From: Porphyridium purpureum
Lineage: Eukaryota
Reading direction: 5' to 3'
Assembly: GCA_008690995.1 (NCBI GenBank)
Contig: VRMN01000004.1
Coordinates: 1,302,001-1,366,000 of the forward strand
Length of the DNA stretch: 64,000 nt
Shown here one piece after another: positions 20,030 to 44,767 of this stretch. Under the pieces are notes generated by a model. The model was not told the DNA's origin. It saw nothing but the letters and a program-made list of their open reading frames with translations, and did no database searches. The stretch's first letter is position 1, and the number at the start of each line of letters is the position of its first letter. A program made the translations under genes and the position numbers.

Positions 20030-21667
20030 CTACTCCAACACCTTTTTGAACGGGTGCATGTGATCAGGGAAGAACCAGTCGCACTCGGTGCCTGGTTCGG
20101 TGGGCTTAATGGGCACCTTGATATCACGCATGAAAGCACGGATTAGCTCACAGCCCTCCTCGACGCTGGTATCAGTAATGACTCGGATCTCTCCGATCCA
20201 ATCCGGAACGCCGTCCTTTGGCCCAATAACCTTCTCTCCTTTCTTTTTGAAGTAGTGAACGAAGGACACGCGTGGATCCTTCTTCAAGTCATTCAACCAA
20301 TCCTCACTCTCCATGGTCCCTGTAAAAGGCGCATTGATTGCAGTCTCTGAAAAGAATCTCATTGGCGTTGGAGGGATGACTGGCCGAATCGGAATTTTTA
20401 GCACGGCCATCATGTGCTCCTCGACAAGGTCCACTCCCCATGCAACCCTGTTGCAGTCATACACAGACACACCGCCCATACGAGCGTTTACCTCGATCAT
20501 CCGCGGACCGCGTGAAGTGTACTTGCACTCCACGTGGAAAACCCCGTACTTGAAGCCTAGAGCCAGCGTGGTGTCCACAGAAAGCTTAATCAGTTCGTCC
20601 TGTTTGGACTGCGGGTAGGCTGATGGGCAATTGGTGCCTACTTCCTGGAACCAGGGCTCCCAGCAAGCCCAGTTGTCCGATACCTTTGCATAGACGCACT
20701 CTCCTTCAAACAGGAGGATATCAATGTCAAACTCATCTCCGTCATAGTATTCCTCGAGAACCATTTCTGTTCCCTGTGCCCAGATTGTGTCCGCCGACAC
20801 GTCAAGCGTCTTGAAGATCTTGTCGTACGCCACGTGCACCATCTCCGTGTCCGCCACCTTGTTGACGCCCATCGAGGCGGCTCCGAAGACAGGTTTGAGG
20901 ATGGCTGGGAAACCGACATAGTCGGCTGCCGCGTCAATGTCATCCTTTGTGAAGATCGACTTGAACTTGGGTACCGGAAGGCCGCACGCTGCCATTACCT
21001 GGCGCGTGACACGCTTGTTGCGCGCCTGGTCGCACGCTAGAACTGAATTTGCTTCCAGTCCGAGGGCCGAAGCCAGGCGGGCCGCCAAAGCCACCGCATC
21101 CTCAAAGTAGGTGGTCACTGCGTCGAATTTCTGCTCCATTCCAAAGATGACGTCCATCGCTCGCTCAAAGACCGTGGCGTGGTCTGTGAAATCAAGCTCG
21201 GCGAATCCTTCGAGCAGACCCTCCTCTGCCGCGCCCCTCCAGATCGAGTCTGGACCGTCCATGATCGTGACGTGCACGCCAAGCTCCTTCAGCCTTTCGT
21301 ACACAAAGCGCTTTCCGGAGTAACCTCCCTGGATAATAAGCACGTTGGCGCCCCGCAGCAATTTGCGACGCAAAGCTTGCGCCTCATCCGAAGCGACCTT
21401 GAGCTTGTCTGGCTTGAGCGCAGGCAGGTTCTGAAACATGGGGCTGAGCAACGACGACGGCGTGGCGTCGACAAACGACTTCATAATCGGGCTGTCACCA
21501 GCGATCAGCTGCATACCTGGGGGCATGAAGTTTGCACGCAGCGAGCTGCCGTACACCTCGGCGTCCGCACCGAGCTCGTCCTGCATCGAGGCGTCGGGAA
21601 TGCGCTCACGCTGCATTCCCGGCATATGGCGCCGATCCAGCGCATAATCAATCGGAACGGACGACAT
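20030..21667 (-). CDS. ATP-grasp amino-acid ligase (carnosine-synthase/L-amino-acid-ligase-like)
   Basis: ARNKRVTR, GFPAILKPVFGAASMGV, LEEYYDGDEFDID, GVFHVE and IEVNARMGG motifs. Confidence 0.85.
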   Translation of the reverse strand: MSSVPIDYALDRRHMPGMQRERIPDASMQDELGADAEVYGSSLRANFMPPGMQLIAGDSPIMKSFVDATPSSLLSPMFQNLPALKPDKLKVASDEAQALRRKLLRGANVLIIQGGYSGKRFVYERLKELGVHVTIMDGPDSIWRGAAEEGLLEGFAELDFTDHATVFERAMDVIFGMEQKFDAVTTYFEDAVALAARLASALGLEANSVLACDQARNKRVTRQVMAACGLPVPKFKSIFTKDDIDAAADYVGFPAILKPVFGAASMGVNKVADTEMVHVAYDKIFKTLDVSADTIWAQGTEMVLEEYYDGDEFDIDILLFEGECVYAKVSDNWACWEPWFQEVGTNCPSAYPQSKQDELIKLSVDTTLALGFKYGVFHVECKYTSRGPRMIEVNARMGGVSVYDCNRVAWGVDLVEEHMMAVLKIPIRPVIPPTPMRFFSETAINAPFTGTMESEDWLNDLKKDPRVSFVHYFKKKGEKVIGPKDGVPDWIGEIRVITDTSVEEGCELIRAFMRDIKVPIKPTEPGTECDWFFPDHMHPFKKVLE

Positions 21668-21923
21668 GGCTGCTTATCTCGCGCGCCCCGTCCCCCTCTC
21701 TCCTCTGCAACACGCGCTCTCGAACCCCCCCCAACCCCGCTGCTTGTCTCCCCTCCTCTCCTCCTATCGGTAAATCCCTGAGCACCTCTGCTGCCGCCGC
21801 GTGCGTTCCTAACCACCTCCACCCCCGGCAGGTTTGTTGTCTCAGCCAACGTCGTGCAACCCTCTGCTGCGCCGAGCGATTGCGCGCAGGTTCTTAACGC
21901 CACCGACAAAGCCTTCCACGTGA

Positions 21924-21986
21924 CACACGCACACACACGTACACACACGCACACACACGCGCACACACACGCGCACACACACACGC
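21924..21986. repeat. Interrupted (CA)n microsatellite
   Basis: Direct reading. Confidence 0.85.
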
Positions 21987-22361
21987 CAGCAGCCGTTTAC
22001 GCTGGGGCGCACTCGGTGCGTTGTCCACGTACCCCAAAACGCGCAAAACCCCCGCGCCGCACCGTACCGGCCGGGCAGCCGTGGCGGTTCATACCAACGC
22101 GGCGCGGTTTATACCAACGTGCGCGGCTGCCAGCCCGCCAACGGAACCGCGCGCCACGTGCGGCACGTCCTGCCGCACTGTACCACGCCGCACGCAAGCC
22201 GCGTGGAATGCAGCATTGTATTGGCATCGCGCGCGAGCCAGCCGGATCAGCCGCAGCACCAGACCCTCGGCACACGCGCAAACCGAAACCGCGTGCGCAT
22301 GCGCGCCGCGCGCGGGTCTCGTGAGCGCGCGGACAGCGGCACTGCGTGCGCGCGAGAAGAA

Positions 22362-23420
22362 ATGGCGACGGCACAGCTGGTGCAGCGCATCACAACACTG
22401 CGCGGGCTCGCGGGTCTTTGTGGGAACGCAGCAAGTGGGCCAAGGATGTGCGAGTCGACGTTGATGTCACAGCCAGGCGCGGCGTCGGCTGTCGTTGCGC
22501 TGGTTGACGCGGGGATGGACGTGAGGAGAGACGCCGCGCACGTACCTGCGCCAGGAGCGGCCGGCGAGGGAACAGCGGGCGCTGCGCCTCGCGCGGAAAA
22601 GGCCATGGCTGCGGCGGCGGGCGATGTGCAGAAGCAGGGCCGCGTCCTTGACCCAGACGCGCTTCAGGTCGAGACGTCGATCGCACGCCACGACGTGGTG
22701 GTCTGCGCGTGCAGCAACAGCAAAAAGCGCGTCCATGCAGACAATGTGGACGAGCGAAGGCCAGACAAACGGATCAGGAAGTGGCTGTCGGACCTGCCTG
22801 TCGAAAATATGGACTCCTTCGCTCAGCTGGAGGCGCATGGCTCGCTTGGCGCGCTGAGCGTCAACACAACTGTGATTAACCTGCCAAGCAGAATGGAGCC
22901 AGGCAGCAAAGAAGGGGCGTGCTGGATTCGGAGTGACGATACCGAACTGCTCAAGCGCGCATTGCGAACGAAGCAAAGGATGAAAGTGGCGGCCATGGAA
23001 CGACTTTCGAAAGAAGGGAAACGGATGTCGCAGCCGGGCATTGAAGAGTTGCGCCCGCTCAAGAAGCTAGCTCTTTCGACTGGAAGACCAGCTGCTGCCG
23101 AAGCGTTCTCGGTAGGTCCAGCAGTCGCCATGACTGATGCAAATGAGCCTGCGTCCCGATCTGAGGTCCGGGAACGCCGCGTTGCCGCGTTCAATTTCGC
23201 GTGCTCGCTTGTGGGAGAACGCCCAAACTCGCAGACCATTACAGTTACAGATTGCTTGAAATGGAGTCTTACAGATCTCCGACGCATCTGCGAGATGGCA
23301 AATCTATCAACACATGGCTCGAGCAAAACAGATATTTTGAGAACAGTCATGAACTTCCTAGCAAGTGAACTGTCGCGCGACCCTGAACGAAGCGGTGTTC
23401 GAAACGGAGGCAGCCAATGA
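22362..23420 (+). CDS. Hypothetical protein with C-terminal SAP/HeH-like motif
   Basis: Open frame from ATG 22362. WSLTDLRRICEMANLSTHGSSKTDILRTVMNFL resembles a SAP motif. Confidence 0.6.
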   Translation: MATAQLVQRITTLRGLAGLCGNAASGPRMCESTLMSQPGAASAVVALVDAGMDVRRDAAHVPAPGAAGEGTAGAAPRAEKAMAAAAGDVQKQGRVLDPDALQVETSIARHDVVVCACSNSKKRVHADNVDERRPDKRIRKWLSDLPVENMDSFAQLEAHGSLGALSVNTTVINLPSRMEPGSKEGACWIRSDDTELLKRALRTKQRMKVAAMERLSKEGKRMSQPGIEELRPLKKLALSTGRPAAAEAFSVGPAVAMTDANEPASRSEVRERRVAAFNFACSLVGERPNSQTITVTDCLKWSLTDLRRICEMANLSTHGSSKTDILRTVMNFLASELSRDPERSGVRNGGSQ

Positions 23421-23826
23421 AAGCAGAACAATCCCATGTCTGATTTGCCAAGGAGCGCAGTCGCGCAAGAGCGAGGAAGTCGTTTTCGTTTGTTGTTTTT
23501 TGCAGCATGCTGTGTTTGAAATTTCTTGGCACGAAAGACGAACGAATGGTGGTCTCCAAGAGATCCATCATGCCGCTCGTGGGTAAGACAAGAACGACAC
23601 GAAGGGGCAGTCCTTGGTGCCTCCGCGAGAAATAAGAATTGACGCCATAGTGAAGCTCCGCACAGGCGTCGCGGCCGGAATGGGAAATAAAAGACGAGAG
23701 CAGGAAAGGTTCGGTTATTCATTTGAAAGGCATACAGCGGCAAAAAGAACCGGAAGGGTGAACCACTGCAGAGGACTCAACAGCAGAGGCCCGGATGGCT
23801 CACCCACCAAAAGCACGTTCTTGTTC

Positions 23827-24997
23827 TTAAGACGTCATGTACGAGCTGACATCAATCTTCTCCGGTAGCTCCGGCACCGCCACGGCAAAGCGGCTCTGCA
23901 CCTCATTCAGCACTTCAACTTCTTCTTCCGTCGCTACAAACGAGACGGCGAGACCCTTGGTACCAAATCTGCCCGCCCGACCAACGCGGTGCAAGTATGA
24001 ATCGGCGTCCGGGGGCATATCATAATTGATCACGATGTTCACGCGCTCAATGTCAATCCCGCGACCAAAAAGATCTGTCGAAACCAAGATGCGCGCTTGG
24101 AAGTCTTTGAAGGCACGGTACCTCTTGATGCGCTCTTCCTGATTCAGAGTGGAATACATCGCAATCGAAGGAAAGTTTGACTCGTTCAAAACCTTGTTGA
24201 GCGCTTCCGCACGCTGCCCGCTTTTCACAAAGATTACCACTTGGTTGAATTCAAGTGCGTCGAGCAAATCGTTCAGCTTGCGGTTTTTCTGTGCCTCGTC
24301 CAGCTTCAAGTAGTACTGCAACAAGCCGTGCAGGGTCAATTTGGAATCATTGTCTACGATGACCTCCAAAGGATCCGTCATAAAATGCTTGGCGCTCTCA
24401 CGCAACGTAGCACTCAAAGTCGCAGTGAACATCATCACTTGCTTGTTGGCCGGAGTCGCCATGAAGATCTGCTGAACTTGTGGCCTCATTCCTGCTTCAA
24501 GTACACGGTCGCACTCGTCCAGTACGAAAAATTTGACCTTGCTGAGATCAACGTACTTTCGCTCGACTAGATCAGCCATGCGACCTGCGCTACCCACCAA
24601 AATATTGGGAATCGCAGCCTCTAGCTTCTCTTTATCCGCCTTGACCGGAACCCCACCAAACACGGCCATCGTACGGATGTCTTTGAGGTACTTGCTGAAT
24701 CGGTCAAACTCGGCCTTAATCTGGTACGCGAGCTCACGAGTGTGACCTAGCACGACGCAGGAGATGGTGTTCTCTTCAGGTTCGAGCTGCTGGAGTACAG
24801 CGAGACAAAACACCGCCGTTTTGCCCATGCCCGACTTGGCTTGGCAGAGAACATCCTGTCCCACTATCGCCTGAGGAATGCACTCGTGCTGAACCTCGGA
24901 TGGATGCTCAAAGCCGCAATCCTGAATCGCGCGGAGCAGCTCTGGTTTGAGCAAAAAGTCACGGAAACCAGCTGAATGCACGCCCACATAAGCACCT
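23827..24997 (-). CDS. UAP56: DExD-box RNA helicase UAP56/SUB2, exon 2
   Basis: [27 protein letters not shown] and [10 protein letters not shown]. Acceptor CAG ends at 24998. The spliced product is 434 aa. Confidence 0.95.
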
Positions 24998-26455
24998 CTG
25001 TGATGTTCATGGAAGCCAAATCATGCCGTCGTGGAAAGAACATGATGCAGAGACCCACAAGAACAAGCCGCGGAAAATTAGAAATCGCAGCAACGCGATC
25101 GACACAGAATCACAAAATCAAAAAATAAAAAAGTCAGGAGTTGCCGGATTAGTAACATGTTCACATCATCTTCGTCTTATCACACGTGACAATGGCAAAG
25201 ACTGAAATGACTCACATTGCGCACCGCTGACCCCGCCGACGACAAGAATGAGCTGGACAATACGGAACAGGGGCCAGGCAGGTCATCTCAAATGATCATG
25301 CGAAAGCAAGTTTGCCAGGCAATGTGGCTGCCTCCACGGAAACTGGCTTGCGAAGGGGACCTGATTTTTTCTGAAAATGAGCACTCGGCAATACTGCTGA
25401 GGCCGGATGCGACTGACGAGCCCCGAGGAATCTATGCACACGAAAAATCATCTTTCAAGCGTCTGTCATGCCAAGAATATGGGCAGCTCCCATCTCTTCC
25501 CGATGGACAAGCAACCAATTCATTCGTGAGCCTAGACATCCCAAGGAAGCACACAGAGATGGGCTGAATGGAGACCTTTCAGATCACCTCTGCAGAGCAA
25601 GAGCAAGAAATCAATCTCTCGTACATAAATACCAACGGTGCTGGATCTGAGCAACCAGGCACGGTCGAAACCTTTCCAGTACCACGGCTCGCGTCACGGA
25701 AGTTCCCCGGTCGCAGAAAAAAGTCCCCAGACACAAAATCAGAGAGAACAACGCCGTGCCTGCTCACCAACAAATTTCGAGAGAGACAAAAGGGGTGACA
25801 CTGCACGAACAAGCTGAAGACGCAAGTATGCCGTCGCTTCCTTCATTCTTCTCTCTTCGCCTGGAGGCCCCCAAATGTAATTCAAACACAAGGCGTTGGA
25901 GAGATTGTTTCCTGATAGAAATCCTCCTCCTGATGTCCCAATCAAGCTCATTCTTGTCCGGATAGGGCCAGAGATCCTAAATGACGAGATTTGTAGTCCA
26001 GCACGCCGCAGGAGCCACGAGGAAAAGAATAGAAAAAGAAAATAGGAAAGGCAGAGAGAGACCGAACCAAGGACGGTCGCTTCAAACACGGAGTGCGCTT
26101 GACCGCTGAGACCTCTTGAGAACCGGTTTGCGCCTAGTCCCTTCCCACTGCACGTTTGAGTACACGCCGCGCGCGAGTGAAAGCGACCAAAGCGGAAACG
26201 AACAGAAGGAGAATCGCTCGCGCCACACTCCTCCCGGCGAGGGCACGGGCCCGCCACCACGAGGCCAGTCTCTCGAGCCAGTCTCCGACCCGATCACGGG
26301 CCTCAACTCGCCCGGAACGAGCCTCCCCATTTGATTAAGACCTCCGAAGTCGGCCACCGCCGAGCTCTCTGGTCGCAACCGCGCGCCGTCGCTGCGGGGA
26401 ACCCGCAACGAGTGAAAACTTTCTACAACAGAAATATCCCGTCTATCTTACGTAC
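24998..26455 (-). other. 1458-nt phase-2 spliceosomal intron of UAP56
   Basis: Donor AA|GTACGT at 26455 and acceptor CAG|A at 24998 join to give ...[18 protein letters not shown], the conserved UAP56 sequence. Confidence 0.9.
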
Positions 26456-26589
26456 TTATTCCCCGACTTGGCGTCGGCCGGTGCATCGGCCTTGGAGGCT
26501 GCCGCGACCGGCGCATCCTCTTCTTCCTCGTAATCGACCAGGTCATCCTCCTTCACCGCGGCCTTGGCCACGCCGTTCTCCCCCGCCAT
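26456..26589 (-). CDS. UAP56: UAP56/SUB2 exon 1
   Basis: MAGENGVAKAAVKEDDLVDYEEEEDAP..., carrying the conserved UAP56 N-terminal LxDYEEE motif. Not in the ORF track. Confidence 0.9.
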
Positions 26590-27108
26590 GGTTCCGCGCG
26601 GCACCCGTCGACAAACTCCCTGCTTCTCACGAACGCCGTGCGGAAAGCCTCAGTTGCCACGAAACCGTTCCGCCCGTAGCCACCACAGTCGCTGTCGCTG
26701 TCCAAGCCTCACTCCCCCGCCTCTTCGCCTCGTACTCTGTCCGCACCGCGATTCTGCCGTGCTCCGTTGGTGCGCTCGTGTGCTATTGAGAGCCCGCACT
26801 GCCTGGGCCGAAGCTATGCGCGTTGATAGTAAAAACGGCTCGTTTTGCTAGACGACGCGCGCCAGTTGCGCGGTGTGTGGTGCACTCATCCGCGTGGAGG
26901 TGTACAGTATGGCTCTGTGTACAGTTTCACGTTTGCGGGGAGGTTTTGCGTGCCGTGAGAAGGAGCGGGAGGGTGAGGATGCAACAGGGAAGGGACATGA
27001 GCTGTGGGGAAGCGAGCGACGGGTGGGGAAAGGACGGGAGCGAGAGAGGGACGGGCGCGCGCGAGGGACGGAACGCACAGGGGAGTGGTTTGGAGAGGGC
27101 GCGCGGTC

Positions 27109-27390
27109 ATGGCGGACAAGATGGCGAGGGTGATGAGCACCGTTCGCGGCGAGAATGTGTTCTCGTTCATCAACCAACGCCTGTTCGGCGCGCGCGGCTT
27201 CAAGGGCCTGGCGCAGGCGTATTACGACAAGTACGTCGCGACGAACACCCTGATGCCGCTCGTGCACTACGCGAGTTACGCGTTCTTGTTCGGATACGCG
27301 CTCGAACACTCACACCTGAAGCATGTCAGGAAGCATGAGCAAGAAGAGGTGTTCCATATTCCGTCTATGCCAACAGAGGCGGACGTGTAA
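27109..27390 (+). CDS. ATP17: Mitochondrial ATP synthase subunit f (ATP17-like)
   Basis: 93 aa; YYDKYV...PLVHY...FGYALEHSHLKH matches the fungal/plant subunit f pattern. Confidence 0.75.
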   Translation: MADKMARVMSTVRGENVFSFINQRLFGARGFKGLAQAYYDKYVATNTLMPLVHYASYAFLFGYALEHSHLKHVRKHEQEEVFHIPSMPTEADV

Positions 27391-27674
27391 GAACGCGCTT
27401 GTGCTTGAGCGCACATGGTGTTTCACGCTACTATGAAGGAGTGGTCGTGGGGTGTGTGTGTGTTTGTGTGTGTGTGTGTTTTTTTGTGTGTTTGTGTCTT
27501 TGCGGGTGTGCCTGAAAGAGAAGTTTGAGCGTCTATAGCACGTCTTTTTTATACTCTCATTGAGTTTTGGAAACACGATCAGTTAGATCGACAAGTAAAG
27601 CGAAGTCTTGCTTGAGCACTCAAATATTAATGTGACTTGATTCATGCCGTTTGGAGCATTATCATTCAAAGTCG

Positions 27675-28793
27675 TCAGTAGTCAGCGTAAAATATTCGGT
27701 CTAGGCACAGTCCCCTTGCCGGCGCGGCCTTGGGAGCTATTCTGCGGTCTCGAGCGCCTAAGAGAACGTCAATGTGCTCTGGTGGCATGTCGTGCCTGGC
27801 CACATGCAGTGCAGCGCCAATCATATTCCTCACCATCTTGTACAAGGCACCCTGCAGGTCTACTTCGACGGTCATCAAACGGGGATCTCGCTCGTCGCGT
27901 ATCACTCGCACGGAATGCACTGTGCGAACGGGGTTCCGGACAACTTCTCCGTGACTTAATCTATTCGCGAATGAACTAAAGTCGTGCGTTCCCACAAACC
28001 TCTGCAGGGCCGCTTCGAACAAATCTGTATCGCACGCTTGATATTCATGGTGTCGATATAATCGTTCAAGCGGATCCATACACGTCGCGAACATGATTTT
28101 GTACGAGTAGATCTTGTGCTGCGCGCAGTAAATGCTGTGCCAGGGTTTCAATCGCTCGCCACTCGGGAGCTTGACCAGCGATGGTGGCGGTGCCACCTCC
28201 ATGCGCAGCACCTGCAGATTGGCCGGAAGCATCCGATTTACCTGGAATTCGAGGCGCGATAATCCTGACGAATCATCCTGTTGCAGATCCTCCTTTGGTA
28301 TTTCCTCAGGAATATCGAAGTGCGCCACCTGCCCGCGCGCATGCACACCAGTATCGGTACGCGATGCGCCCACAACGCGCGTAAATCCGTTCAGCCTCCG
28401 CGAGAACACTTTTTCAAGCGTGGCCTGCACAGAGTTGCGAGTGTTGATTTGATACTGCCAGCCTCGAAATTCAGTTCCATCGTACGCAACTGTCATTCTA
28501 CAACGATAGGTCTCGCCACGCAGTACACGAGCCTCCGTCTCTGACCACAAGCTCCAATCTGCGTCTGCAAGATCCGACTCGATTTGGCCTGCATCAATCA
28601 CGCAAAACATCACCGCACGCGACTGAACGGTTGACGAGGCCGGCAGTGGAATGTTTAGAGGTCTGATCGACCGTTGGCCGTAGCAGAAGGCTCCTGATCT
28701 AACGACTCCGCCGCGACCATCCGCACGTGCATTTGAGCTGCGTCGCTGCTGCCACGCCGTCGTGACGACAACAAAGCCAGGCCTGGAAACCAT
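27675..28793 (-). CDS. truA: tRNA pseudouridine synthase A, probably organelle-targeted
   Basis: VAYDGTEFRGWQ, GASRTDTGVHARGQVAHFD, GTHDFSSF, LYKMVRNMIG and AAPARGLCL motifs; transit-like N-terminus. Confidence 0.92.
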   Translation of the reverse strand: MVSRPGFVVVTTAWQQRRSSNARADGRGGVVRSGAFCYGQRSIRPLNIPLPASSTVQSRAVMFCVIDAGQIESDLADADWSLWSETEARVLRGETYRCRMTVAYDGTEFRGWQYQINTRNSVQATLEKVFSRRLNGFTRVVGASRTDTGVHARGQVAHFDIPEEIPKEDLQQDDSSGLSRLEFQVNRMLPANLQVLRMEVAPPPSLVKLPSGERLKPWHSIYCAQHKIYSYKIMFATCMDPLERLYRHHEYQACDTDLFEAALQRFVGTHDFSSFANRLSHGEVVRNPVRTVHSVRVIRDERDPRLMTVEVDLQGALYKMVRNMIGAALHVARHDMPPEHIDVLLGARDRRIAPKAAPARGLCLDRIFYADY

Positions 28794-33262: not shown

Positions 33263-36200
33263 TTACACGCCTGAGATCAGCATGTCGACGGCTTTAATAA
33301 CATCCCCGTCTGTGCGGAACAGAGCCATGCGAGCTCGATGCTCATCAAAACCAAGTTCCAGGAGTTGCGCGACTTCATCCTCGAAATCCTTTTCTGCGAC
33401 AATGGGTGCCACTGGCACCCCAGATGCTGAACCAGCTTGAAGCTCCCTATGTTCCGACGATCCCTTGAGTGGTTGGGAACGTCCACGTTTGATACCAGAT
33501 GCCCACGACATTATCTTTTCTCTTGTGCCGGCCTTCTTCAGGGGGATTTCTCTGTACTGAGCTACCTGCCCTACGTCGCCAGATTTCTCGTCTTCGTTTG
33601 ATCTTCCTTGGCGTGTCCCAGGTTCTCGCGAAAATCCTGCACGATTGCCCGTGTCTGGATTGACGCGCGACAGCGAGCTTGATCCCTTCCTGACGGTCGG
33701 CGGCTTATCCGCATCCGCGAGCACCCTGTCTGTGACTACGACTTTCATTCGCACACACGGCCCGCGAGCTTGAAGCTCCTGATACACAAATGTGTCCGGA
33801 GAAGCATTTCGGATCAGAAGCAACGGCTCTGCCAGCATCGAGGCAGCAAAAAAGAGAACGACTTTTCTCTGGCTGGCGGTCTTCAGAATGAAAGATCCAC
33901 GCACATCCGAGACAATACTATCAGCCCCTTGAGCAACGAAAACCATCTTGTGATGGGCCAAAAGTCTCTCGAGAGGAGCTTCTGCCCAGCGCCCCGAGTG
34001 CAACACCAATTCGGACACTATCAATGTTTCAGGAAGATCATTTGCGATGTGAAAGACACACGTCCGCTCATGATCAAACCAACCGTGATGAGATGCAATG
34101 ATAGCATCGATTCCCGGGTCGAGGGAGGCGAGCAACTCCGCTGCGCTAGGCTGATTCTGTACATTAACATGCGCCAACAGTCCACTCTCGTTTCGACTTG
34201 ATGGTGAAAGGGAGACACCGTCCGCAGCGCCAATACCTTCCTCGCCATCACGCGGGAAATCCTCAATCTCAAGAGCACCCAGAAGGATGGAAGATGCAGA
34301 GGCACCCGATGAAGGAATTAGAGACTTCTTCGATTCAGAAGCGTAACGTATAGCCTGTTGCAACTCATCGCGAGCTTTCTGAGAGCCGCAGAACAATCGC
34401 TGCCATGAGGTGGACGGAGAAGATGCATTTCGCACGCCTAGCATAAGATAGTCCTTGTTTTCTGCAGAGACATGCGTGTTTGAAATATTTTCCAACGGGC
34501 AGGACCAAACCAAGTCACCATCCAAAGTTGCTACGACCAAGCGCAACGTTGTGACGAGCGCAACACGGCTCTTCTCCGCTCGCTTCACATTCACCTCGTT
34601 GTTCTTCAACTTCCGCCGCAGCAGAGGATCTGCCCTCGTGAAGCGACGAACAATCAACCACGTTTCCTCGGCTCGGGAAGAGCTGCTAGATGCAGATGTC
34701 AGTTCGAGCCAGAATAGAACTGTTTCTCTGTCCTGGATGGAGTGTGCCTCGTAACCAACTCGGTTCGATTCAGAACGCCCGGCGGCATTCAAGATAGCAT
34801 CCCCTAAGGAGTCCCGGAAATCGTAGGGGCGCAACCGATTTCCCCTGGCAATACGCGGAGGCCGGAGCGGCTCAGCAATGTCGGTCAAGCGCTGAGTGAC
34901 AATCATGTTCCGGATTCCTACCGCAGGCTCTGCAATCATGTCCAACGCACCGGTCAATGGCTTCAATGCCACGCCCGCCACTCCTTTGCCTAGCCCTTTC
35001 CAAAATCCAAGGAATCCATCTTGTCTAGCTCCCTCTACAGGATTTGTAAACAACCCTGTCGCCCCAGACCGGATTCCGTGACCAAGAGCAATGGTTCCGG
35101 CAAGCAAGCCAGTGGCGAGAGTTTGAGAGCCGCGATGCTGGTTGTATCGCATTGCCTCTCGTTCAGCGATGTATTTCTTGTCCCCAATTGCGGACTCGAG
35201 ACCTTGCGCCATGGCCCTCGGTATTCCGCCAACAGACCCGATCAGGCCTCCCGCCGTGTTGGAAATCAAAGACGCCCCACCTCGCCCAACGCTCGTTATA
35301 AATTCAACAGATCCTTTGGCCTTGCGCGGTTCCACGAAGAAGTCCCGGGCACCGATCGAGACGGACTCAAACAAGCCAGACGCATTTCCTAAGAGAGCGT
35401 TTGACGCGACCACTTGGTACTTATTCTGGTTCACTTGCTGCAAATAGAACTTGCCGATTAAATTGCGGAAATGATCGACGTTGTCGAACACATTTTCGAG
35501 CTCAAGAGCATTCAATTCGAACTCAGCGTTCTCCACATTTCCAAGAACAGCAATCAGGGTCCTTATCAGTGTGCGATACTTCCGCATGGGAAGCTGCACA
35601 TTCTGCGAAGCAGAAAAGGAAAGCGAAAATTTGACTGGTGCCAGTAGTAGGCGGTCAATACAAATCCGCGGAGGCAGGTCGTCCTCGGAAATTGCGCGAG
35701 TCTTATGTGACTTCACAAAGCCTTTCGACTCCTCGTCGTCATCAAGCGGCTCTCGCTCATCAACTGATCCCAAACTCATTTGAACAGTCATTGCGTAAAG
35801 CTTCAGAGCAAACGTTTCCTCAAGACAGACGCGAAATTGCTGGAACGCGACGTAGAACGCGGAGACACGAACAATCTCGTCCTTCGTGTTCTTCACACGG
35901 TCCAAGGTTAATTGCATGGCAGGCGGTCGAGTGCCAGCAGTACTGTCCTTACTAGAGTCATTACGCGGAAACCACAAGACTACAGGATACGACGGATTCT
36001 TCAACTGGTTATCAATCTGAAAGTCGCCGACTTCTGTGATGATCAACCGCCTCTCGTCGGATTCATCCATGTGAAAGCGGATGTCACGCAAAGAAATGTA
36101 GCATACTTCATCGAGATCTGCATTGGTGCAACTGATACCGATTGCGGAGATTACCACCTCAATATCCATGGAGACGATCTCGTCTCTAATTACTTCCAAT

Positions 36201-39200
36201 TGGTGAGCCGAAGGCGCAGTCGTCGCTGATATTTCAGCGGCATCATCACTGACTGACTTAGTACCTTCATCAGCGGCAACAAGACTTAGTTCCGTGTCGC
36301 CGCCCTCAGCGGCATTCTCTCCGCTCAGTACGTCATCCCATGCCACAATAGGCACAGGTTTCGGTTCTATGTCGCTGGAAATTTTGCGGCGCGATGCGGG
36401 TAGAACTGCAGCGGCTTTGCTGGATGCCTCCAAGGCCGCAAGGTGAACGTCATCGTCAAAGAAGGTGACGATTCTCGAGGGGCCGTTCATTTCTACACGG
36501 ACAAACAAGGGCAAATCGGAACCACCAAATCGATCGTATTGGACCGCCATTACAACGTCAATGCACAGCTCAAACTCGGGGGACGAGACCTCCACATTTC
36601 GAAACAAACCTGGGGTTACTTCTTTTCTCCTTGTTTCGATGGCCCGAATCATCAACAGCTGCTTACGCTTCGGCGCCTGAATATCATCCCAAGCGTATCT
36701 GGTGGTCATTCCCGGTTTCAACAGCCACGGGTGGGCTTTGTTAGAGGTCATTTGCCTGAAGGCAATAGCACGGGTTTTGCAGTAGTTTCGAATACGGTAG
36801 GGAGGATGGTCCAGATCCTCACCATACACCTGGATTAACAAAGAGCCTCCTTCCAGGCGGGTGCTCACGACTCTCGCAATGTACTGCTCGTGAGTTTTCG
36901 GTCGATACATTTTCGCCGGGACTTCGCCCAACGTTTTCTCGACCGGAATTGCCTGCGACCAAATCCAATCGCTGGAAGCAGGATTGATGGAGTCGGCAAT
37001 TCGAAAACACAATCCGCGCTCATCTTCATCCGAGCGCCCGGCGGACGACTTCCGAAAGTCCCAGGATACAGCCGCCCTTTTCCCCGGTTCCAAATGATGA
37101 ACATGTGACGCAAGCAAAATGCCTCGATTGTCGAGAGCTGCGGGTTCGCACCACTGAATATATCTGCTTGTCTTGTTCTCCACCCATAGCTGATGCCGGA
37201 TACACACCACAGTTGTTCGGTGAAATGGGCGACGCCCTGTCCTACAATCCAACGTCAAATAAGAGAACGTGGTGGATACCGAATCGTATTTGTCCACTTC
37301 TTGTACGTCTACGTTGGCGGACCATCCCGAGTCGTTGCCAATGCTCACCCGCTGACCAGAATTATCAAAAATATCATGGAACTCGAGCAAAGAACCAGTA
37401 CAAACAGCGAAACTCTCAGGTTTCTCGCCGGGAGGACGTCCTTCAAGAGCCAACGTGTATCGGCTTTTAGAATGGTAGTTCAGGGTCGATGAAGTCGACC
37501 TCAACGAAACCGGAAGCTTTGATCTCACAAGGAGCGGCTTACTGGTGCGATTACGAAGCCATACATCTGCGAAAATGACAACTCGTTGGTGGTTGCACGA
37601 AGACTCGCGCTCAAATTTGAGAGGGACAGCAGAACCAGGCTTTTGAGAATTCCGACACCAGAAATACCCCATCGAATCTCTCAGACTGAAAGGACGCACT
37701 TCTTCAAACTGCGGCGATTTTCCGAGTGCAACCGATTCGTAGTCCAAAGTATCATTGTTTGCAAAGTCCACCTCAAGCAGAATGTCAGAAAGGTCTCGCT
37801 GGTTAAGCACAAAGACCTCATAGACCCCTGCAGAATCTGCCACACCTTGGTCTACCAAAATAAACTCCTTACTTCGCCGCGGACCCATCTGCGTCATGAA
37901 CATCTTGAAGAAAAGCGGACGCGGCAACGCATTTTCTACCACGAGAGGCGGAATCAAGTGAATATCTACCCAAGCTCGTGATAAAAGCTCGCGAACCGTC
38001 CCAGAGTCAATCTTCGGCTTCAGAGAGAGATGGAACTCCTTCTCACTCGACTGGACTGCCCGGCAAACAATCTTCAAGTCACATTCTGGCAAAGGCCTCC
38101 CGTCGCCCGCAGCGTCCTGAGATCCGCTACCCCGAGAATCTGACGTGATCTGGTTCCATGCATATTCGCGAAGGTTCTCTATTTTTGCCAGTGGCTGGCT
38201 GAATGAGAATACAGACTCTATTTCTCCAAAATCCGAACTGTCATCATCAGCCGGCTCGATGGAAGAAAGTCGCCGCAAGGAAACCACAGATTCCTTGATG
38301 CAAGGGCGTACCAGAAGAGGTCTATTCACAGAATATACCGGAACTGACCAGTGCCCTCCGGGAGCCATGACGACGCATGTGTCTCCATCGCTTATCTCAA
38401 TGGGCACAGCAGTGCTGTTTACAACGCGCGCCAGGCTTCGTATGATTCCAACTGCCACACCATCCTCCATTCGAACTTCCCAGACCATCAAGACTTCCTG
38501 CATCTCCTGCGTCACCAATTGAGATGATGCATTCTTCGATTTGCTACACAACGCTTGAATTTCGAGAGGGTCTGGTGGAAACGCCACACACGCGATACGC
38601 GAATGTTCCAGCGAAAGCGATACCTCAAGAAACCCGTGGAACTTGACAGTGCATTGCATCAGATCTTTTCGCTGCTTCTGAGCCATGGTGGTCTCGCTCG
38701 ACAATAGCACGTCCTCAGCAGCAATATCGACTTCATACTGGGCACCATTTGCAATAACCCGTTCCGCAGACGAGGCAGGCTCCTGAAATATAAGGCTTCG
38801 CCCACTTTCATTTCGCACCACGTAAGCCGCGACACTCGGACGGCGTCGCTGAACGTCTTCGGCATCTGCGCCAGCAGCTTGGCTTGGGCCCTCTCCGACA
38901 GAATCAATGGCGCTCTGAACAGCCTTCAACACTTGAGCCAAGCCCGTCAATGTACTTGGGGTAAGATTTATATCCATGCGATCGTCTGTTCGAACCCCAA
39001 TCGCTTTGGCTCCTTCACTGCCTTCATTAACAGCAAGGCGCAAACGAAACGTCTCAATGCCGGGAACCCAGTATCCTCGCATTCTGTCAAAAAGATCTAA
39101 CGACATCTCCGACTCGACGTTAGTCACAATCGGCGCGTTGGACCGTACAACACTATCGCGCAAGCGAAATTCCAGAACAGGGACGTAGCTATTCGACGCT

Positions 39201-42200
39201 TCGTTCTCGTCCGTTACCACGCATCGAAATGAGGCTATTATCGCAGAGACATCCGTTTCTCGCACTTGGCCTGCAGTCATCGCAAGAACCGCTGGAGAAA
39301 TTCCAACTCGAGCTCGTGAGCTTGCTTCAGATGCAAGCAAGGCTCCTCGCACAAGACGATCAACAATAGCGGCGATGATCTGCACGTCCTGGACAGCCAC
39401 TCGCGCCACAAAGTTCTCCGCAAAGATATTGACCCTCATAAAAGTCGGCGCCAGCTCAATCGTCATGGTTGTCTGAGCTGGGTACACAACGGGAATTGCA
39501 AGGGACTCGCTCGCCAGCGCACTCAATGACATATTCAGCGATGGTGTTAAAATGCTTACGGTCTTGTCGCGAGTCACTGGGGCCCAAATAATTTTGGCGA
39601 CAAAGTCTCCTCCGATCACGAGAGCTCTCGGATCATTCTCAAACGCATCCGCTCGCAACTCGATTTTCGGCTGCGAGAGCGTCACGGTCATTTCTCTGCC
39701 GAAAAAGGGAGGATCGACTGCGAACTTGGAAGTCGGCAGATAAGGCCACCCGGGAATTGTGAGCTGGCCAAGTCTTGCAAAAATTTCAGGTGCGACACGC
39801 ATTCGTAAACCATTCACAAAAAGCAAAATGACGGGACGCATGTCGAGCCCTCGATCATACGTCACCTGGACGTTGGGCTCCTGCTCCCATTCTTGACTAT
39901 TTTCTGAGCCCAATGATGCCTCCATTAGCTCTACCGGTGCGTGTGGAATTCCGTAGTCAGGACCACGAAGGCAAGCATCCTTCACGTAATCCAAGCGGCC
40001 TTGCAACTCAAACTTGAAACGGCCCGTCCACTCCACAGAAGCACGGCCTGCAATGCTTGACAATGACGTTTCAATCAGTTGATCGCGAGCGTCAGTGCTC
40101 GAACCTTGCGCAATAACCGATTTCAGTTGCGAAACATGCAACAAAACCAATAGCGCTGGCGGGGCCGTCTGATCGTCGTTTGACGCCAATCCTGATTTAA
40201 GAGTGGACGCTTCATTTCCATTCGTTTTCGCCTCGCTTTTTTTCCGTGAGCCAGATGCTTGGTCTGTTGTACCCACGTCGTGCGATTCGTCGAAATTCAG
40301 TGAGGCTGGTTCTGCCGCATTCTCCGTGAGAACAAAGTAAAGTATCGAGTACTCTGCCTCATTCATGCGCAAAAGCACGCTAGATGAAGTAAAGCATCGA
40401 AGCCGTAAGGCTGGAAGAGCTGAAGGGACATTATAGACGAATTCCAACGAGCTCGTTTCCGAAACTCGTTGAGAGTCCATCGACTCGTCCGGCACGTGAG
40501 CTCGAAACATATCGCCCTTGACTACCATATGAAAATTCTCCAGCAATGTTCGCATGCCCGTTGCATCTGCGTCGGGATCGATAGGGACAGGCTCTGATCC
40601 CGGATGATATAGAGCGAAAGCGTTAATTCCTTCTAGGGCCATTTTGAAGCCGAAACGATATCCTACGGCACTGAGCTCCTCATTGGATATCCGTATTCTT
40701 GTGATTCGGAAGCGAAGACCTTCATGGAACGACGCCGAGTCTCGAGGAAGTATGTAGTCAACGTCGCCCACCAAGAAGCTGAAGCGTAGCCTGGGAGAGC
40801 GCTTCTGTAGTAGGAAGGCCAAAGAGTGAGGTTCCCCGCTGTCCAGCAGACTTGCCATTGTCAATGCCGATGCTGGCTTTTCAAACCCATTTGCCTTTCG
40901 AGAGTGGCCACCTGGGTCGGAATCAACAATATCCTGCATCTTTCGACCAAATGCGCTGACGTAATTTTGAACATTTCTTAAAAACTGGGTCACGAGAGCA
41001 CCACGCAGGCCTTCAAACTTCAGAATGAGCCATGGGTCCTGCTTCTCCGATGCAGCTGGTATGGATACGATATAACCGTCCTGGCACTTGTCGATGTCAC
41101 CGACTCGGGCGGCCGCCAGGTCATGCTGAGCTTCGTTGCCAGTTGAGGAACGTTCGTATGAGAGGACGCGCCGAAAGGTTCCTGATTTAGCCGACAGATC
41201 CAAAAGGACAAGCTTTCCCAGCTGACCTCTAGAACTCAATGAACCGTCTGTTCTTCGCTCGAAAAATGTGCGTGCGTTTTCAAGCTGTAGAGAACACAGC
41301 CCTCCGAATTTTCTGGAACCGACGTACACACCTAGCTCCTTCAAGGATGTGGAAATTCGCACAATCCCTAAACCTTGAATAACTTCCGCCGACAGGTCAA
41401 GAACATCGCCAGCGTTTTCTTTCAGAATCTTTGCAGCGTCCGCCGCTGAATTGATCCCAATAGCGTAGAATGCATCTTTGGTCTTTTCTTTGGTTCCCGA
41501 GACAAAGAAGAAGCGTAAGATCTCCAAGTAGGTCTCAAAGTTGATATTCACACGCAACACATCAAAGTTGGCGACCAAATCCTGTGAATCCACCCCAGTC
41601 TGCCTCTTGCGAGAAAACTCGACGGCGAGGAATCTGGTATCTTCTGACGGCGTCAAATCTGCAGTGCTGTTATCGTCCTCTGACGGCCGTGAGGGACCTG
41701 CGTACACCAGACGATTGCGCATCTCACCGTTGACGTGCTCGTTCATTTCAAAACCAGACGACGCAAAGGCCATGCTTGGTCCTTCAGACTTGAGCAAAAT
41801 TTCAAGGTGAGATCTCTTGGCCTGGCCGGACAAAAAGACCCGATCGTCTTTTTCCAATAATTTGTATGCTAATCCGTCAAAGTCAAAGCGCGTCTTAAGA
41901 GAAATCAAGGATTGCTCAGGTCTCAGAGTGCGACGCAAGGGTACAGAGTCTGCTCCCACGCTCCCTTCCGCGCCTCCAATCTTTCGAGGAGGAATGCTCG
42001 AATCCGCGGCACCTTCTCTTTCAGGTATCGGCCATTCATCTTCAAAACTATGGTCCTCCTGCGCTGAAGGCTCATCGCTGGAGGTAGCACTCCGCGCGGC
42101 AGCAGCTGATTGCGATGCCCAAGCACTGAAAACACCAACCACGTGCTGATAGTTCAGGCGTGACAGTTGCACGCTCAGACTCGGAAGGCGACCAATCAAA

Positions 42201-44767
42201 AAGGTTTTCACCAAAGATGAACGAATGCGTTCTTCTGGCACGGCTGCGGCTACCAAATGCAGATTCTGTAGACCATGAATGACGAGATCGCATTCAATCG
42301 GCTCGAGGAGAATCTTTGCTTCTTTCAAGTGCCTGCGCTCGTGGACGACACTCACCGAGAGATTACTCGCTCGCAGCACATGCTTGGTGTAGCGAATCAG
42401 AGTCGCACGCTCAGGATCAAGAAATGACATTGCGCCCTCCGGAGGCCCAGACCCACCTGGTAATGTTTCAAATGAAAGAGTACCGGAATCGAGGATGATG
42501 GCCGGATCTTGTGTACGGCGTCCGGTCAGAATAAATCGAGGCGCTCGCACTTTCAGCTGAACTTTGAGTTTGGAAGATGATTCTGCCAGAGCATGTTCCA
42601 TTCGCACGCGTAGCTCTGCAAGCCTGGCATCTGCAACCGACGAGAGAAAAGAAATAATTCTCCGTGGCTCGCTTGTTGGGCTCCAGAATGAAAAGGACTT
42701 GAAAACCACGGATTCGGCACCATCAAAAACGATGTCCACGCCGCTCAGAGCAAAGATAAGCTCGTCCGAAAACGAAGGTGCATCGTTTGAGCCTTTCTTT
42801 CCTGGAAGAAAGCGTCTCTTTAGACTGAGGCCCGCAATGCATGGCATATCTCTGTCTGCCTGGGAGCCCGTCAGATTTCCAAACGCAGATCTTATGGTTC
42901 CTGTGAGACCACCACCTACAGCCAGCTTGTTATCAAGAACATTGTCCTTAGGTCGGTCCGTGTGTTCGCATACTGATTCAAGAATCTGTTCCACACTCTG
43001 GGGTAATCCTAGGTACATCTGATCGACGTTCTTGAAGTTTGAAAAGTCAAAAGAATCACGCGGGTGCAGCGCCATAACATTGTTTCTACTGTCCCAACAC
43101 TCAAGTTTCCCGAGCGACATTCCCATGGAATAGCTCCCATCATGACAGGTTTCGAGACCAAAATTCAAGTGGTGAAACATAAGCTTAGAAAACTCGGTCC
43201 CTGCATGCGGGTACCCACCTCGGGCGAGCGTGATGGAGCCAACACGGAGACCAAAGTTCACTTTGAGCCCCCTCGCGGTACCAAACCGTGCGGAGACCCT
43301 GGCTGGAGTGTGCTCCTCCGCTTCATCAGTGCTTTCCTCTTCTGTGTAATCGATCAAATACTTTTCGTCGAGGCTGGGCATCGCCGATGCCTTTTTCTCG
43401 GGTTTCGCAAGGCGCCGCACAAGGCTCATGTCGACTAGGTCTCGCCATGCAATCACCTCGACGTACGAAAGCGCCACTTCGTACCCCTTCATGCTTGCGC
43501 GAAAGCTGTCGGCGAGCTTTTCATTCGAACTTCTTTTGGCTTCAATGTAGCTCACACGTACGGTTTCGTATTTCTCAAATGTCGCGCGGAAATCATGCAG
43601 ATGTTCGGGTGTGAGTCTGGTTTCTTGTCGCCGTCGATCCAGGAATCCAGGAAGCAGCTGGTGGACGGCCCACTGCCATTTTTCACGAGCGCTTCGATAC
43701 TGAAATGGAATTCCGGACGACTTGAAGGAGCTCATATGGTGCACCACAGAGAGCAGACTCGCGTACTGAAAGTCGTCGAAAGAAACACCGAACTTCGGGA
43801 AGCATACGTCGAGTGACGACTTTGGCTTTGCCTGCGCAATCTGGTCGGCAGATCGCAACCCATTCAAGTAATTTTGGTAAGCTTCCTCTCTGAACACTGC
43901 TGCCCGAAGCTCTCCAGACACTGGCTGTAAGATATAGCTTTGATCCCGACTGTTCCCGCGTCTTCGCTGCCAAATCATCTTGGCCATTGTGGCTGGATCT
44001 ACGTTCGAGGCCTGCGCAGGGCTCATTTGCACCAGTGGATCCGAGCTGTCTCCGCCCTGATGAAGCAACGGGAAGGCTTGAAGAGCCAAGTCCTTCAAAA
44101 CAATGCGCTTGAACACTTGCGGGCTTTCTTGATCTTGAATGAATACATTTTGCCAATTGGCATCCGTGGAATGTGTTTCCAGCCGCGCAAGCTGAATTTC
44201 TGCGCAGACAGGCTTGCTTGGAACAGAGCAAGGGTCCTCATAACGAATAAAAATGTTATGGACTTCAATGCGGATGTTATCCAAGATCTTGCTCACAAGC
44301 CCAGAAGTACCCAAAGAGAAGTAGCCGGCAGATTTGCTCTTGGCTTTTTCGCCTGCGTCACTCAACTCCTGGGCTGCTTGCCACGCCCCTTCGCGGAAAG
44401 CGTCATCTTGATCTAGTCGCGCCTGTTTGAGCCGTGCATGTCGTTCCAGAAGCGCCTCTGGCGATGAATCCGCTGCAGGACGCGCTAGAACACTGATATC
44501 TTCTAGCGTTACCTGCACCGGCTTTGAGCGGAGTGAGGTCCATGGCACCTGGACCTTTAGCACACCAACGACGCCCTGACGAACCGTAACGGGTAAATTG
44601 AATCCCAGCGATTCAAAGAGAACCTCTAGCGCCTCTGCGTGGAGTTGCAGGCCGCGCAGTTCGAGATTTCCGCCCCAAACGCCAACCTTAAGACTCTCGC
44701 GGTCGATACCACTAACATATTGTCCCAACACGCGCGATAGCACGTCCGCGACGACACTTTCGAACAT
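33263..44767 (-). CDS. VPS13: VPS13-family lipid transfer protein (3834 aa, intronless)
   Basis: Chorein-N start MFESVVADVLSRVLGQYV, VAB/SHR-BD-like PPYRIRN...YAWD, FQIDNQ, ATG_C-like PVEGARQDGFLGFWKGLGKG and PLRPPR, followed by a PH-like region and a C-terminal UBA. Confidence 0.93.
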   Translation of the reverse strand: MFESVVADVLSRVLGQYVSGIDRESLKVGVWGGNLELRGLQLHAEALEVLFESLGFNLPVTVRQGVVGVLKVQVPWTSLRSKPVQVTLEDISVLARPAADSSPEALLERHARLKQARLDQDDAFREGAWQAAQELSDAGEKAKSKSAGYFSLGTSGLVSKILDNIRIEVHNIFIRYEDPCSVPSKPVCAEIQLARLETHSTDANWQNVFIQDQESPQVFKRIVLKDLALQAFPLLHQGGDSSDPLVQMSPAQASNVDPATMAKMIWQRRRGNSRDQSYILQPVSGELRAAVFREEAYQNYLNGLRSADQIAQAKPKSSLDVCFPKFGVSFDDFQYASLLSVVHHMSSFKSSGIPFQYRSAREKWQWAVHQLLPGFLDRRRQETRLTPEHLHDFRATFEKYETVRVSYIEAKRSSNEKLADSFRASMKGYEVALSYVEVIAWRDLVDMSLVRRLAKPEKKASAMPSLDEKYLIDYTEEESTDEAEEHTPARVSARFGTARGLKVNFGLRVGSITLARGGYPHAGTEFSKLMFHHLNFGLETCHDGSYSMGMSLGKLECWDSRNNVMALHPRDSFDFSNFKNVDQMYLGLPQSVEQILESVCEHTDRPKDNVLDNKLAVGGGLTGTIRSAFGNLTGSQADRDMPCIAGLSLKRRFLPGKKGSNDAPSFSDELIFALSGVDIVFDGAESVVFKSFSFWSPTSEPRRIISFLSSVADARLAELRVRMEHALAESSSKLKVQLKVRAPRFILTGRRTQDPAIILDSGTLSFETLPGGSGPPEGAMSFLDPERATLIRYTKHVLRASNLSVSVVHERRHLKEAKILLEPIECDLVIHGLQNLHLVAAAVPEERIRSSLVKTFLIGRLPSLSVQLSRLNYQHVVGVFSAWASQSAAAARSATSSDEPSAQEDHSFEDEWPIPEREGAADSSIPPRKIGGAEGSVGADSVPLRRTLRPEQSLISLKTRFDFDGLAYKLLEKDDRVFLSGQAKRSHLEILLKSEGPSMAFASSGFEMNEHVNGEMRNRLVYAGPSRPSEDDNSTADLTPSEDTRFLAVEFSRKRQTGVDSQDLVANFDVLRVNINFETYLEILRFFFVSGTKEKTKDAFYAIGINSAADAAKILKENAGDVLDLSAEVIQGLGIVRISTSLKELGVYVGSRKFGGLCSLQLENARTFFERRTDGSLSSRGQLGKLVLLDLSAKSGTFRRVLSYERSSTGNEAQHDLAAARVGDIDKCQDGYIVSIPAASEKQDPWLILKFEGLRGALVTQFLRNVQNYVSAFGRKMQDIVDSDPGGHSRKANGFEKPASALTMASLLDSGEPHSLAFLLQKRSPRLRFSFLVGDVDYILPRDSASFHEGLRFRITRIRISNEELSAVGYRFGFKMALEGINAFALYHPGSEPVPIDPDADATGMRTLLENFHMVVKGDMFRAHVPDESMDSQRVSETSSLEFVYNVPSALPALRLRCFTSSSVLLRMNEAEYSILYFVLTENAAEPASLNFDESHDVGTTDQASGSRKKSEAKTNGNEASTLKSGLASNDDQTAPPALLVLLHVSQLKSVIAQGSSTDARDQLIETSLSSIAGRASVEWTGRFKFELQGRLDYVKDACLRGPDYGIPHAPVELMEASLGSENSQEWEQEPNVQVTYDRGLDMRPVILLFVNGLRMRVAPEIFARLGQLTIPGWPYLPTSKFAVDPPFFGREMTVTLSQPKIELRADAFENDPRALVIGGDFVAKIIWAPVTRDKTVSILTPSLNMSLSALASESLAIPVVYPAQTTMTIELAPTFMRVNIFAENFVARVAVQDVQIIAAIVDRLVRGALLASEASSRARVGISPAVLAMTAGQVRETDVSAIIASFRCVVTDENEASNSYVPVLEFRLRDSVVRSNAPIVTNVESEMSLDLFDRMRGYWVPGIETFRLRLAVNEGSEGAKAIGVRTDDRMDINLTPSTLTGLAQVLKAVQSAIDSVGEGPSQAAGADAEDVQRRRPSVAAYVVRNESGRSLIFQEPASSAERVIANGAQYEVDIAAEDVLLSSETTMAQKQRKDLMQCTVKFHGFLEVSLSLEHSRIACVAFPPDPLEIQALCSKSKNASSQLVTQEMQEVLMVWEVRMEDGVAVGIIRSLARVVNSTAVPIEISDGDTCVVMAPGGHWSVPVYSVNRPLLVRPCIKESVVSLRRLSSIEPADDDSSDFGEIESVFSFSQPLAKIENLREYAWNQITSDSRGSGSQDAAGDGRPLPECDLKIVCRAVQSSEKEFHLSLKPKIDSGTVRELLSRAWVDIHLIPPLVVENALPRPLFFKMFMTQMGPRRSKEFILVDQGVADSAGVYEVFVLNQRDLSDILLEVDFANNDTLDYESVALGKSPQFEEVRPFSLRDSMGYFWCRNSQKPGSAVPLKFERESSCNHQRVVIFADVWLRNRTSKPLLVRSKLPVSLRSTSSTLNYHSKSRYTLALEGRPPGEKPESFAVCTGSLLEFHDIFDNSGQRVSIGNDSGWSANVDVQEVDKYDSVSTTFSYLTLDCRTGRRPFHRTTVVCIRHQLWVENKTSRYIQWCEPAALDNRGILLASHVHHLEPGKRAAVSWDFRKSSAGRSDEDERGLCFRIADSINPASSDWIWSQAIPVEKTLGEVPAKMYRPKTHEQYIARVVSTRLEGGSLLIQVYGEDLDHPPYRIRNYCKTRAIAFRQMTSNKAHPWLLKPGMTTRYAWDDIQAPKRKQLLMIRAIETRRKEVTPGLFRNVEVSSPEFELCIDVVMAVQYDRFGGSDLPLFVRVEMNGPSRIVTFFDDDVHLAALEASSKAAAVLPASRRKISSDIEPKPVPIVAWDDVLSGENAAEGGDTELSLVAADEGTKSVSDDAAEISATTAPSAHQLEVIRDEIVSMDIEVVISAIGISCTNADLDEVCYISLRDIRFHMDESDERRLIITEVGDFQIDNQLKNPSYPVVLWFPRNDSSKDSTAGTRPPAMQLTLDRVKNTKDEIVRVSAFYVAFQQFRVCLEETFALKLYAMTVQMSLGSVDEREPLDDDEESKGFVKSHKTRAISEDDLPPRICIDRLLLAPVKFSLSFSASQNVQLPMRKYRTLIRTLIAVLGNVENAEFELNALELENVFDNVDHFRNLIGKFYLQQVNQNKYQVVASNALLGNASGLFESVSIGARDFFVEPRKAKGSVEFITSVGRGGASLISNTAGGLIGSVGGIPRAMAQGLESAIGDKKYIAEREAMRYNQHRGSQTLATGLLAGTIALGHGIRSGATGLFTNPVEGARQDGFLGFWKGLGKGVAGVALKPLTGALDMIAEPAVGIRNMIVTQRLTDIAEPLRPPRIARGNRLRPYDFRDSLGDAILNAAGRSESNRVGYEAHSIQDRETVLFWLELTSASSSSSRAEETWLIVRRFTRADPLLRRKLKNNEVNVKRAEKSRVALVTTLRLVVATLDGDLVWSCPLENISNTHVSAENKDYLMLGVRNASSPSTSWQRLFCGSQKARDELQQAIRYASESKKSLIPSSGASASSILLGALEIEDFPRDGEEGIGAADGVSLSPSSRNESGLLAHVNVQNQPSAAELLASLDPGIDAIIASHHGWFDHERTCVFHIANDLPETLIVSELVLHSGRWAEAPLERLLAHHKMVFVAQGADSIVSDVRGSFILKTASQRKVVLFFAASMLAEPLLLIRNASPDTFVYQELQARGPCVRMKVVVTDRVLADADKPPTVRKGSSSLSRVNPDTGNRAGFSREPGTRQGRSNEDEKSGDVGQVAQYREIPLKKAGTREKIMSWASGIKRGRSQPLKGSSEHRELQAGSASGVPVAPIVAEKDFEDEVAQLLELGFDEHRARMALFRTDGDVIKAVDMLISGV

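Follow-up and report, generated by a model that had tools for sequence, protein, structure and literature searches.

Porphyridium purpureum is a red alga whose genome is reported to contain about 235-245 introns in total. Among these ~240 introns is one of 1.46 kb in the UAP56 gene, at a position common to red algae. An intron of this length is notable because the species has so few. The original prediction for this DNA was that a helix masks the branch site and pyrimidine tract of a decoy acceptor. The window analyzed here is a 64,000-nucleotide stretch of contig VRMN01000004.1, positions are counted within it, and every feature of the gene lies on the minus strand.

The SUB2/UAP56 gene and its transcripts

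The gene is SUB2/UAP56. Coding exon 1 (26456..26589), with its ATG at 26589, is placed by an RNA-contig junction and by the spliced 434-aa product. Coding exon 2 (23827..24997) encodes the DEAD-box helicase core and is placed by protein identity; its translation matches P. purpureum SUB2 (434 aa) at 100% identity. The 434-aa protein is encoded by the product that joins 26456 to 24997. The GT-AG intron removed in this joint (24998..26455, 1458 nt) is the only intron in the coding region.

Eight RNA runs among the 24 listed were examined as assembled contigs, which drop rare forms. The 26456-24997 joint (GT..AG) is found in five of them (X18, X19, X2, X3, and X7), and the three runs that lack it may be, or include, DNA. 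Contigs cover the unspliced intron in all eight runs, though they give no levels and DNA is possibly present. The contig depths over intron and junction (463/1020, 257/518, 140/192, 17/6, and 13-14/5) are likewise not usable as levels. Retention of the intron results in a stop after 48 codons. About half of the transcripts of this alga are reported to be unspliced (PMC8831791, citing Wong et al. 2021). Because retention is common genome-wide in P. purpureum, the unspliced contigs are no sign of regulation here.

Splice sites within the intron

The likely true branch site, judged from the consensus, is UACUAAU (25147..25154). Its A at 25149 is 151 nt upstream of the true acceptor and lies inside a 170-nt AG-free zone; weaker CURAY candidates are present at 25134 and 25078. 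CURAY is found upstream of the true acceptor in all four UAP56 introns compared, those of P. purpureum and three relatives. The branch-to-acceptor distance is 151 nt in P. purpureum versus 25-71 nt in the relatives.

The intron contains 75 internal AGs. The one at 25590, part of a candidate CAG acceptor (25590..25592), has the highest pyrimidine content among them and is the acceptor that was originally called a decoy. Its pyrimidine tract is the best of the intron. No use of it as an acceptor was observed: a joint at 25590 or at 25253 occurs in none of the eight runs, including X18 with its donor joint, in contigs that lose rare forms and comprise no NMD-blocked data. A25611, in the motif UUGAU, is 21 nt upstream of the AG ending at 25590. 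The motif is only branch-like, with the C of CURAY missing from UUGAU; strict CURAY was found upstream of 0 of the 75 internal AGs. Two of eight loose branch motifs are followed by an internal YAG 12-45 nt downstream, UUGAU at A25611 among them.

An internal donor, GUGAGU (25210..25215), is joined to the true acceptor (joint 25216-24997, GT..AG) in run X18 only, one of the eight, at low depth. This form stops translation at 48 aa. Acceptor 25590 and the used donor 25215 together would define a stop-codon decoy or poison exon, a candidate cassette of 374 nt (25216..25589) with its 3' end given by the X18 joint and its 5' end putative. Inclusion of the cassette would result in a translation stop at 63 aa. 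The second internal AG (25254-25253) would bound a 37-nt mini-cassette ending at 25216. Such a mini-exon would be frameshifting and may be an alternative target of structural masking.

A long-range helix with a single bulged A

The helix is composed of a 16-nt 5' arm (25899..25914) and a 17-nt 3' arm (25604..25620), the latter containing the branch-like UUGAU, the bulged A25611, and the start of the pyrimidine tract. The original prediction described 16 bp with one G-U and A25611 bulged in UUGAU, 21 nt from the AG, and recomputing the arm pairing confirmed this. The order is 9 bp, the bulged A25611, and 7 bp, with 15 Watson-Crick pairs and one G-U. The helix is long-range, with a 278-nt loop between its arms. 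It was also proposed to nest in a 14-bp helix and to continue through 25632-25637/25894-25899. The nesting is possible. The continuation is not possible as 6 bp, since C25899 is shared, and adds at most 5 bp with a predicted probability of 0.03-0.96 depending on parameters.

The 14-bp helix is perfect and pairs 25945..25958 with 25241..25254 at probabilities of 0.94-1.00. Its 3' arm begins exactly on the second internal AG.

By pair count, the helix exceeds every other bulged long-range helix in the intron. Intron shuffles (2-, 3-, and 4-let, 150 each) yield an equally long helix in 1, 6, and 3 cases, and 80 window tiles yield one in a single case. The 14-bp helix is not equaled by pair count in any of 450 shuffles or 80 window tiles. 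By energy alone, the bulged helix is ordinary: its -22.9 kcal/mol ranks 8th-9th within the intron, and at both k used, every one of 60 shuffles contains a helix at least as stable. The 14-bp helix is matched in stability by 26-28 of 60 shuffles and hence is also ordinary by energy.

What distinguishes the bulged helix is its placement. At each of three k, none of 2000 upstream shuffles gave A25611 a 16-bp partner (0/6000 in total), a test that is optimistic and overstates the significance because the site was chosen retrospectively. The partner of A25611 is also the best among the 237 As of the intron, where the runner-up has 11 bp. The coincidence of placement survives despite the post hoc choice of site.

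Predicted folding of nascent and full-length RNA

In transcripts ending between 25585 and 25430, the bulged helix is predicted at a probability of 0.50-0.98 in all 40 conditions, which combine 4 parameter sets, 2 temperatures, and 5 lengths. At transcript ends 25350 and 25230, the probability is 0.15 or less in 16 of 16 conditions. Neither the minimum-energy nor the ensemble fold of the full intron contains the helix (P 0.00), and at full length a competing downstream partner (25430..25460) takes over 25630-25603. Forcing the helix, nested in the 14-bp helix, into the full-length fold costs 8.8 of ~287 kcal/mol, which is within model error. The predictions thus describe a helix that forms early, during transcription, and that kinetic trapping may or may not preserve later. 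A25611 is predicted to be unpaired in nearly all folds (0.52-1.00), also when 25460-25430 replaces the 5' arm.

The AG itself is predicted to be buried in a local 9-bp stem, 25593-25585 with 25561-25553 (25553..25593), in both nascent and full-length folds. Removal of the 5' arm in silico raises the sampled unpaired probability of 25615-25605 in nascent folds from 0.00-0.17 (bulged A aside) to 0.12-0.98. This removal opens the branch-like motif but not the AG, and it changes nothing in the full-length fold. The proposed masking of the branch-like motif and pyrimidine tract is thus supported by the predictions for nascent RNA.

The folding z-scores of the domain are modest, -0.1 to -1.5 in one analysis and -2.1 in another. 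A nascent rod, in which four further 7-bp helices lie outside the bulged helix, was considered as a second state of a switch and rejected as not above background. A duplex energy equal to that of the rod is reached in 105 and 139 of 1000 shuffles, as well as in 159 of 2000 real window pairs.

The intron in related red algae

The relatives compared are three distant metagenome loci (L001, L002, and L003); the introns of the close P. aerugineum and Erythrolobus fall outside the comparison. Pattern scans of genome contigs and viral contigs gave 0 further loci. The proteins of all three loci group by sequence with red-algal UAP56, and all three genes have an intron at the identical position and phase, 440-579 nt in length. 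Many other matches begin at the intron point, which is consistent with a shared intron. The four UAP56 introns all start with GUACG after AA (26455-26451 in P. purpureum), which differs from GUAAG at +4.

Sequence similarity among the four introns, short motifs included, does not rise above that of shuffles in any of the six pairs. L002 has a palindrome-based 14-bp perfect long-range helix (2636-2623 with 2460-2447, minus strand) that no shuffle reproduces at either of two k (300 shuffles each). L001 has a 13-bp long-range helix with one G-U (3973-3961 with 3727-3715, minus strand), which is reached by 4 and 3 of 300 shuffles. These two helices are unrelated in sequence, and no unusually long long-range helix was found in L003. 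None of the three relatives has a branch motif with a similar bulged-A helix; the best one there has 9 bp. The L001 helix encloses the best internal YAG of its intron.

A proposed masked acceptor and its alternatives

The most probable explanation, to which we give a probability close to even, is that a helix formed during transcription hides a decoy or poison acceptor at 25590 by covering its branch-like motif and tract until the true acceptor is made. The helix would form once the 3' arm is transcribed and would later be traded for the downstream partner 25460-25430, with the local 9-bp stem predicted to hold the AG paired throughout. Such a mask would bar SF1, U2AF, and U2 from 25590 during the ~600 nt of transcription until the true acceptor emerges. 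With the acceptor masked, the default outcomes would be full splicing or retention. Opening of the helix would divert RNA to retained or stop-codon forms, and UAP56 output would fall. By analogy it is conceivable, though rather doubtful, that UAP56 itself opens the helix and so provides negative feedback. The bulged A would spare the branch A while weakening the helix, and would not be a protein ligand.

This explanation is favored because the helix covers the top-ranked of the 75 AGs with its bulge on a branch-like A, which gained a 16-bp partner in none of the 6000 shuffles. It is also favored by the nascent formation predicted in every one of the 40 conditions, by the used internal donor 374 nt downstream, and by the second long helix that starts on the other candidate acceptor. 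The shared intron position at three of three algal loci, two of which have an unusually long long-range helix, points the same way. So do the precedents of the DDX39B intron 6 decoy (PMC6097662) and of yeast cryptic 3' sites in stems (PMC12350175). It is weakened by the 25590 joint being seen in 0 of 8 runs, by the lack of strict CURAY at the 75 AGs, by the ordinary energy, by a full-length fold without the helix, and by the lack of a sequence or bulged-A equivalent in the three relatives. The helix may also be redundant because the AG is paired with or without it.

Much of this weakening evidence agrees with complementarity that is fortuitous or neutral, in a long and generally folded intron whose 25590 site is never spliced and whose helix serves no function. 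Arms rich in GA and UC pair readily, the helix is of ordinary energy and missing from the full-length fold, equal length is reached somewhere in 1-6 of 150 shuffles, and neither use of 25590 in the eight runs nor conservation in the three relatives was seen. Chance leaves as coincidences that the longest bulged helix of the intron sits on its best internal acceptor with the bulge at a branch-like A, and that a second rare helix sits on the other candidate acceptor. We consider chance unlikely, but a serious contender. A role as a folding scaffold is slightly more unlikely. The helix would then compact the 1.46-kb intron like a zipper, or serve as an intermediate that guides the 14-bp helix into which it can nest, and the cover over the splice site would be incidental. 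L001 and L002 have long-range helices without a bulged A or common sequence, as a scaffold would allow, and zippers and long stems are widespread in the long introns of yeast (PMC12350175; PMC12311795). However, yeast zipper stems have a total linker of 42-85 nt (PMC12350175), and the coordinates put the algal arms far beyond that range, at ~540 nt to the donor and 455 nt to the likely branch. A scaffold also leaves the bulge at the branch-like A unexplained.

The original prediction went further and inferred an intramolecular U2 mimic, resembling the U2:branch-point duplex, that blocks the step promoted by UAP56. In such a model, the bulged A25611 would be bound by SF3B or would otherwise stall the spliceosome. 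At the branch point, UAP56 removes SF1 and brings in U2 (PMC11317157), and a survey of 40 lineages found Hsh155/SF3B1 in every one (PMC10158995). What SF3B recognizes in a bulged-A helix is its shape and not its sequence (Zhang et al. 2025, PMC12342898). This recognition extends to U2-free RNA, with a histone H2A mRNA element and a hairpin mimic (4.6 nM) described as ligands in the same paper. The algal RNA resembles these ligands in having a single bulged A, then a pyrimidine tract on the same strand. A helix with one bulged A is indeed present in the nascent predictions, 9 bp precede the A, and the A is nearly always unpaired in the predicted folds. However, the A is not near a helix end. 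SF3B is described as requiring that position together with a single-stranded overhang (PMC12342898), and by our own pairing of the printed sequence the hairpin mimic has 3 bp after its A. In the alga, 7 bp follow A25611 and bury the pyrimidine tract in place of an overhang, so that the A is mid-helix (9+7 bp) with a paired tract. A form with 1-3 bp after the A and a 12-nt free tail would cost 7.9-13.6 kcal/mol in nascent RNA and 17-20 at full length. The cheapest opening, at 7.9 kcal/mol, is still a possible case because binding at 4.6 nM equals ~11 kcal/mol at standard state by our own arithmetic. The 5' arm is also without the U2 branch-recognition sequence, and the bulged-A helix was not found in the three relatives. 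Within the U2 snRNP, the SF3B site is normally engaged with U2. Binding of SF3B to the bulged-A helix is biochemically possible by analogy, and the U2 mimic nonetheless fits poorly; we regard it as improbable. Slightly less probable still is a combination in which the 7 weak pairs fray or are opened by UAP56, the freed A and tract load SF3B, and the resulting dead-end complex sets UAP56 splicing. Should the bulged A prove to bind SF3B, the element would mimic a branch helix naturally and in cis; with SF3B loading of this kind it would also be a helicase-sensing feedback switch.

Comparison with known systems

The closest known case, by analogy, is the decoy exon in intron 6 of human DDX39B (UAP56). 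This decoy is 122-369 nt in length with several splice sites, has strong retention activity, and is bound by U2AF (Parra et al. 2018, PMC6097662). The two introns belong to the same gene family, exceed 1 kb with unspliced RNA, and have more than one candidate acceptor. Both also have a non-coding cassette of similar size, 374 nt in the alga and 122-369 nt in humans, and decoy junctions are described as rare in untreated human cells. Unlike the human decoy, the algal cassette is a candidate decoy, with the 25590 acceptor junction seen in 0 of 8 runs. An RNA-structure gate is proposed for the alga, unlike the decoy as described in PMC6097662. The algal cassette would work like a structure-masked decoy acceptor and is a candidate member of that type.

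The algal intron follows codon 45, and intron 6 of human DDX39B probably lies further into its gene. With such a difference in position, the algal and human decoys would likely be convergent.

In yeast, cryptic 3' splice sites are enriched in probed stems (Rangan et al., PMC12350175). There too, as in the alga, the genome has few introns and a helix covers a cryptic acceptor. The yeast stems are described as lying in the interval from branch point to true 3' site, whereas the algal helix is long-range, lies upstream of the true branch, and extends over a branch-like motif. Autoregulation through introns is reported for yeast DBP2, YRA1, and RPL7B (PMC12311795; PMC4695336). The algal gene resembles these as an RNA helicase or export-factor gene with a long, position-conserved, inefficiently spliced intron, and it resembles RPL7B in the mutually exclusive structures of the intron. 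It differs from all three in that no conserved protein-binding structure was found in the three algal relatives, and feedback here is putative. Pairing of a branch sequence blocks splicing in a theophylline-aptamer design (PMC2275289), which unlike the algal helix is synthetic, ligand-driven, and placed on the true branch site.

A literature search, mostly at the level of titles, found no report on this intron or on UAP56 autoregulation via intron structure. If the structure-gated decoy exon is true, decoy-type control of UAP56 arose both in humans and in a red alga with a reduced spliceosome. The locus would then offer a one-intron, one-helix system for asking whether UAP56 regulates its own splicing.

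Other features of the locus

Six strain differences fall within the intron, and neither helix is touched, which is uninformative as the chance expectation is ~77%. Four of the six cluster at 25730-25821, in the loop closed by the bulged helix, and are common to X18, X19, and X20.

In run X19, one contig covers 25410-25647 at a depth of 40, compared to 13-14 on its flanks. The visible half of a 59-nt record from this run starts at 25410, and the assembly graph suggests an end-to-end back-joint of 25410-25647, which suggests a circle, a tandem copy, or a library chimera. Its ends are not splice-like, and it is absent from X20 of the same study. In the 5' leader, a 116-nt record of run X9 has 61 other letters flanked by matches to 26578-26607 and 26626-26650. 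An intronic ATG at 25286 (minus strand) is in frame with exon 2 via the internal donor, giving a 413-aa product, and matters only if transcription starts within the intron.

No Rfam match near threshold was found across 21000-28000, and a scan for intron-hosted C/D snoRNAs returned two pairs of C/D boxes, neither with a terminal stem. A pattern scan of the window returned 16 intron-like matches, which were unverified and set aside. Elsewhere in the window, an uninterrupted open frame of 3841 codons lies at 33263-44788 (minus strand), which, judged by its start, may be VPS13-like.
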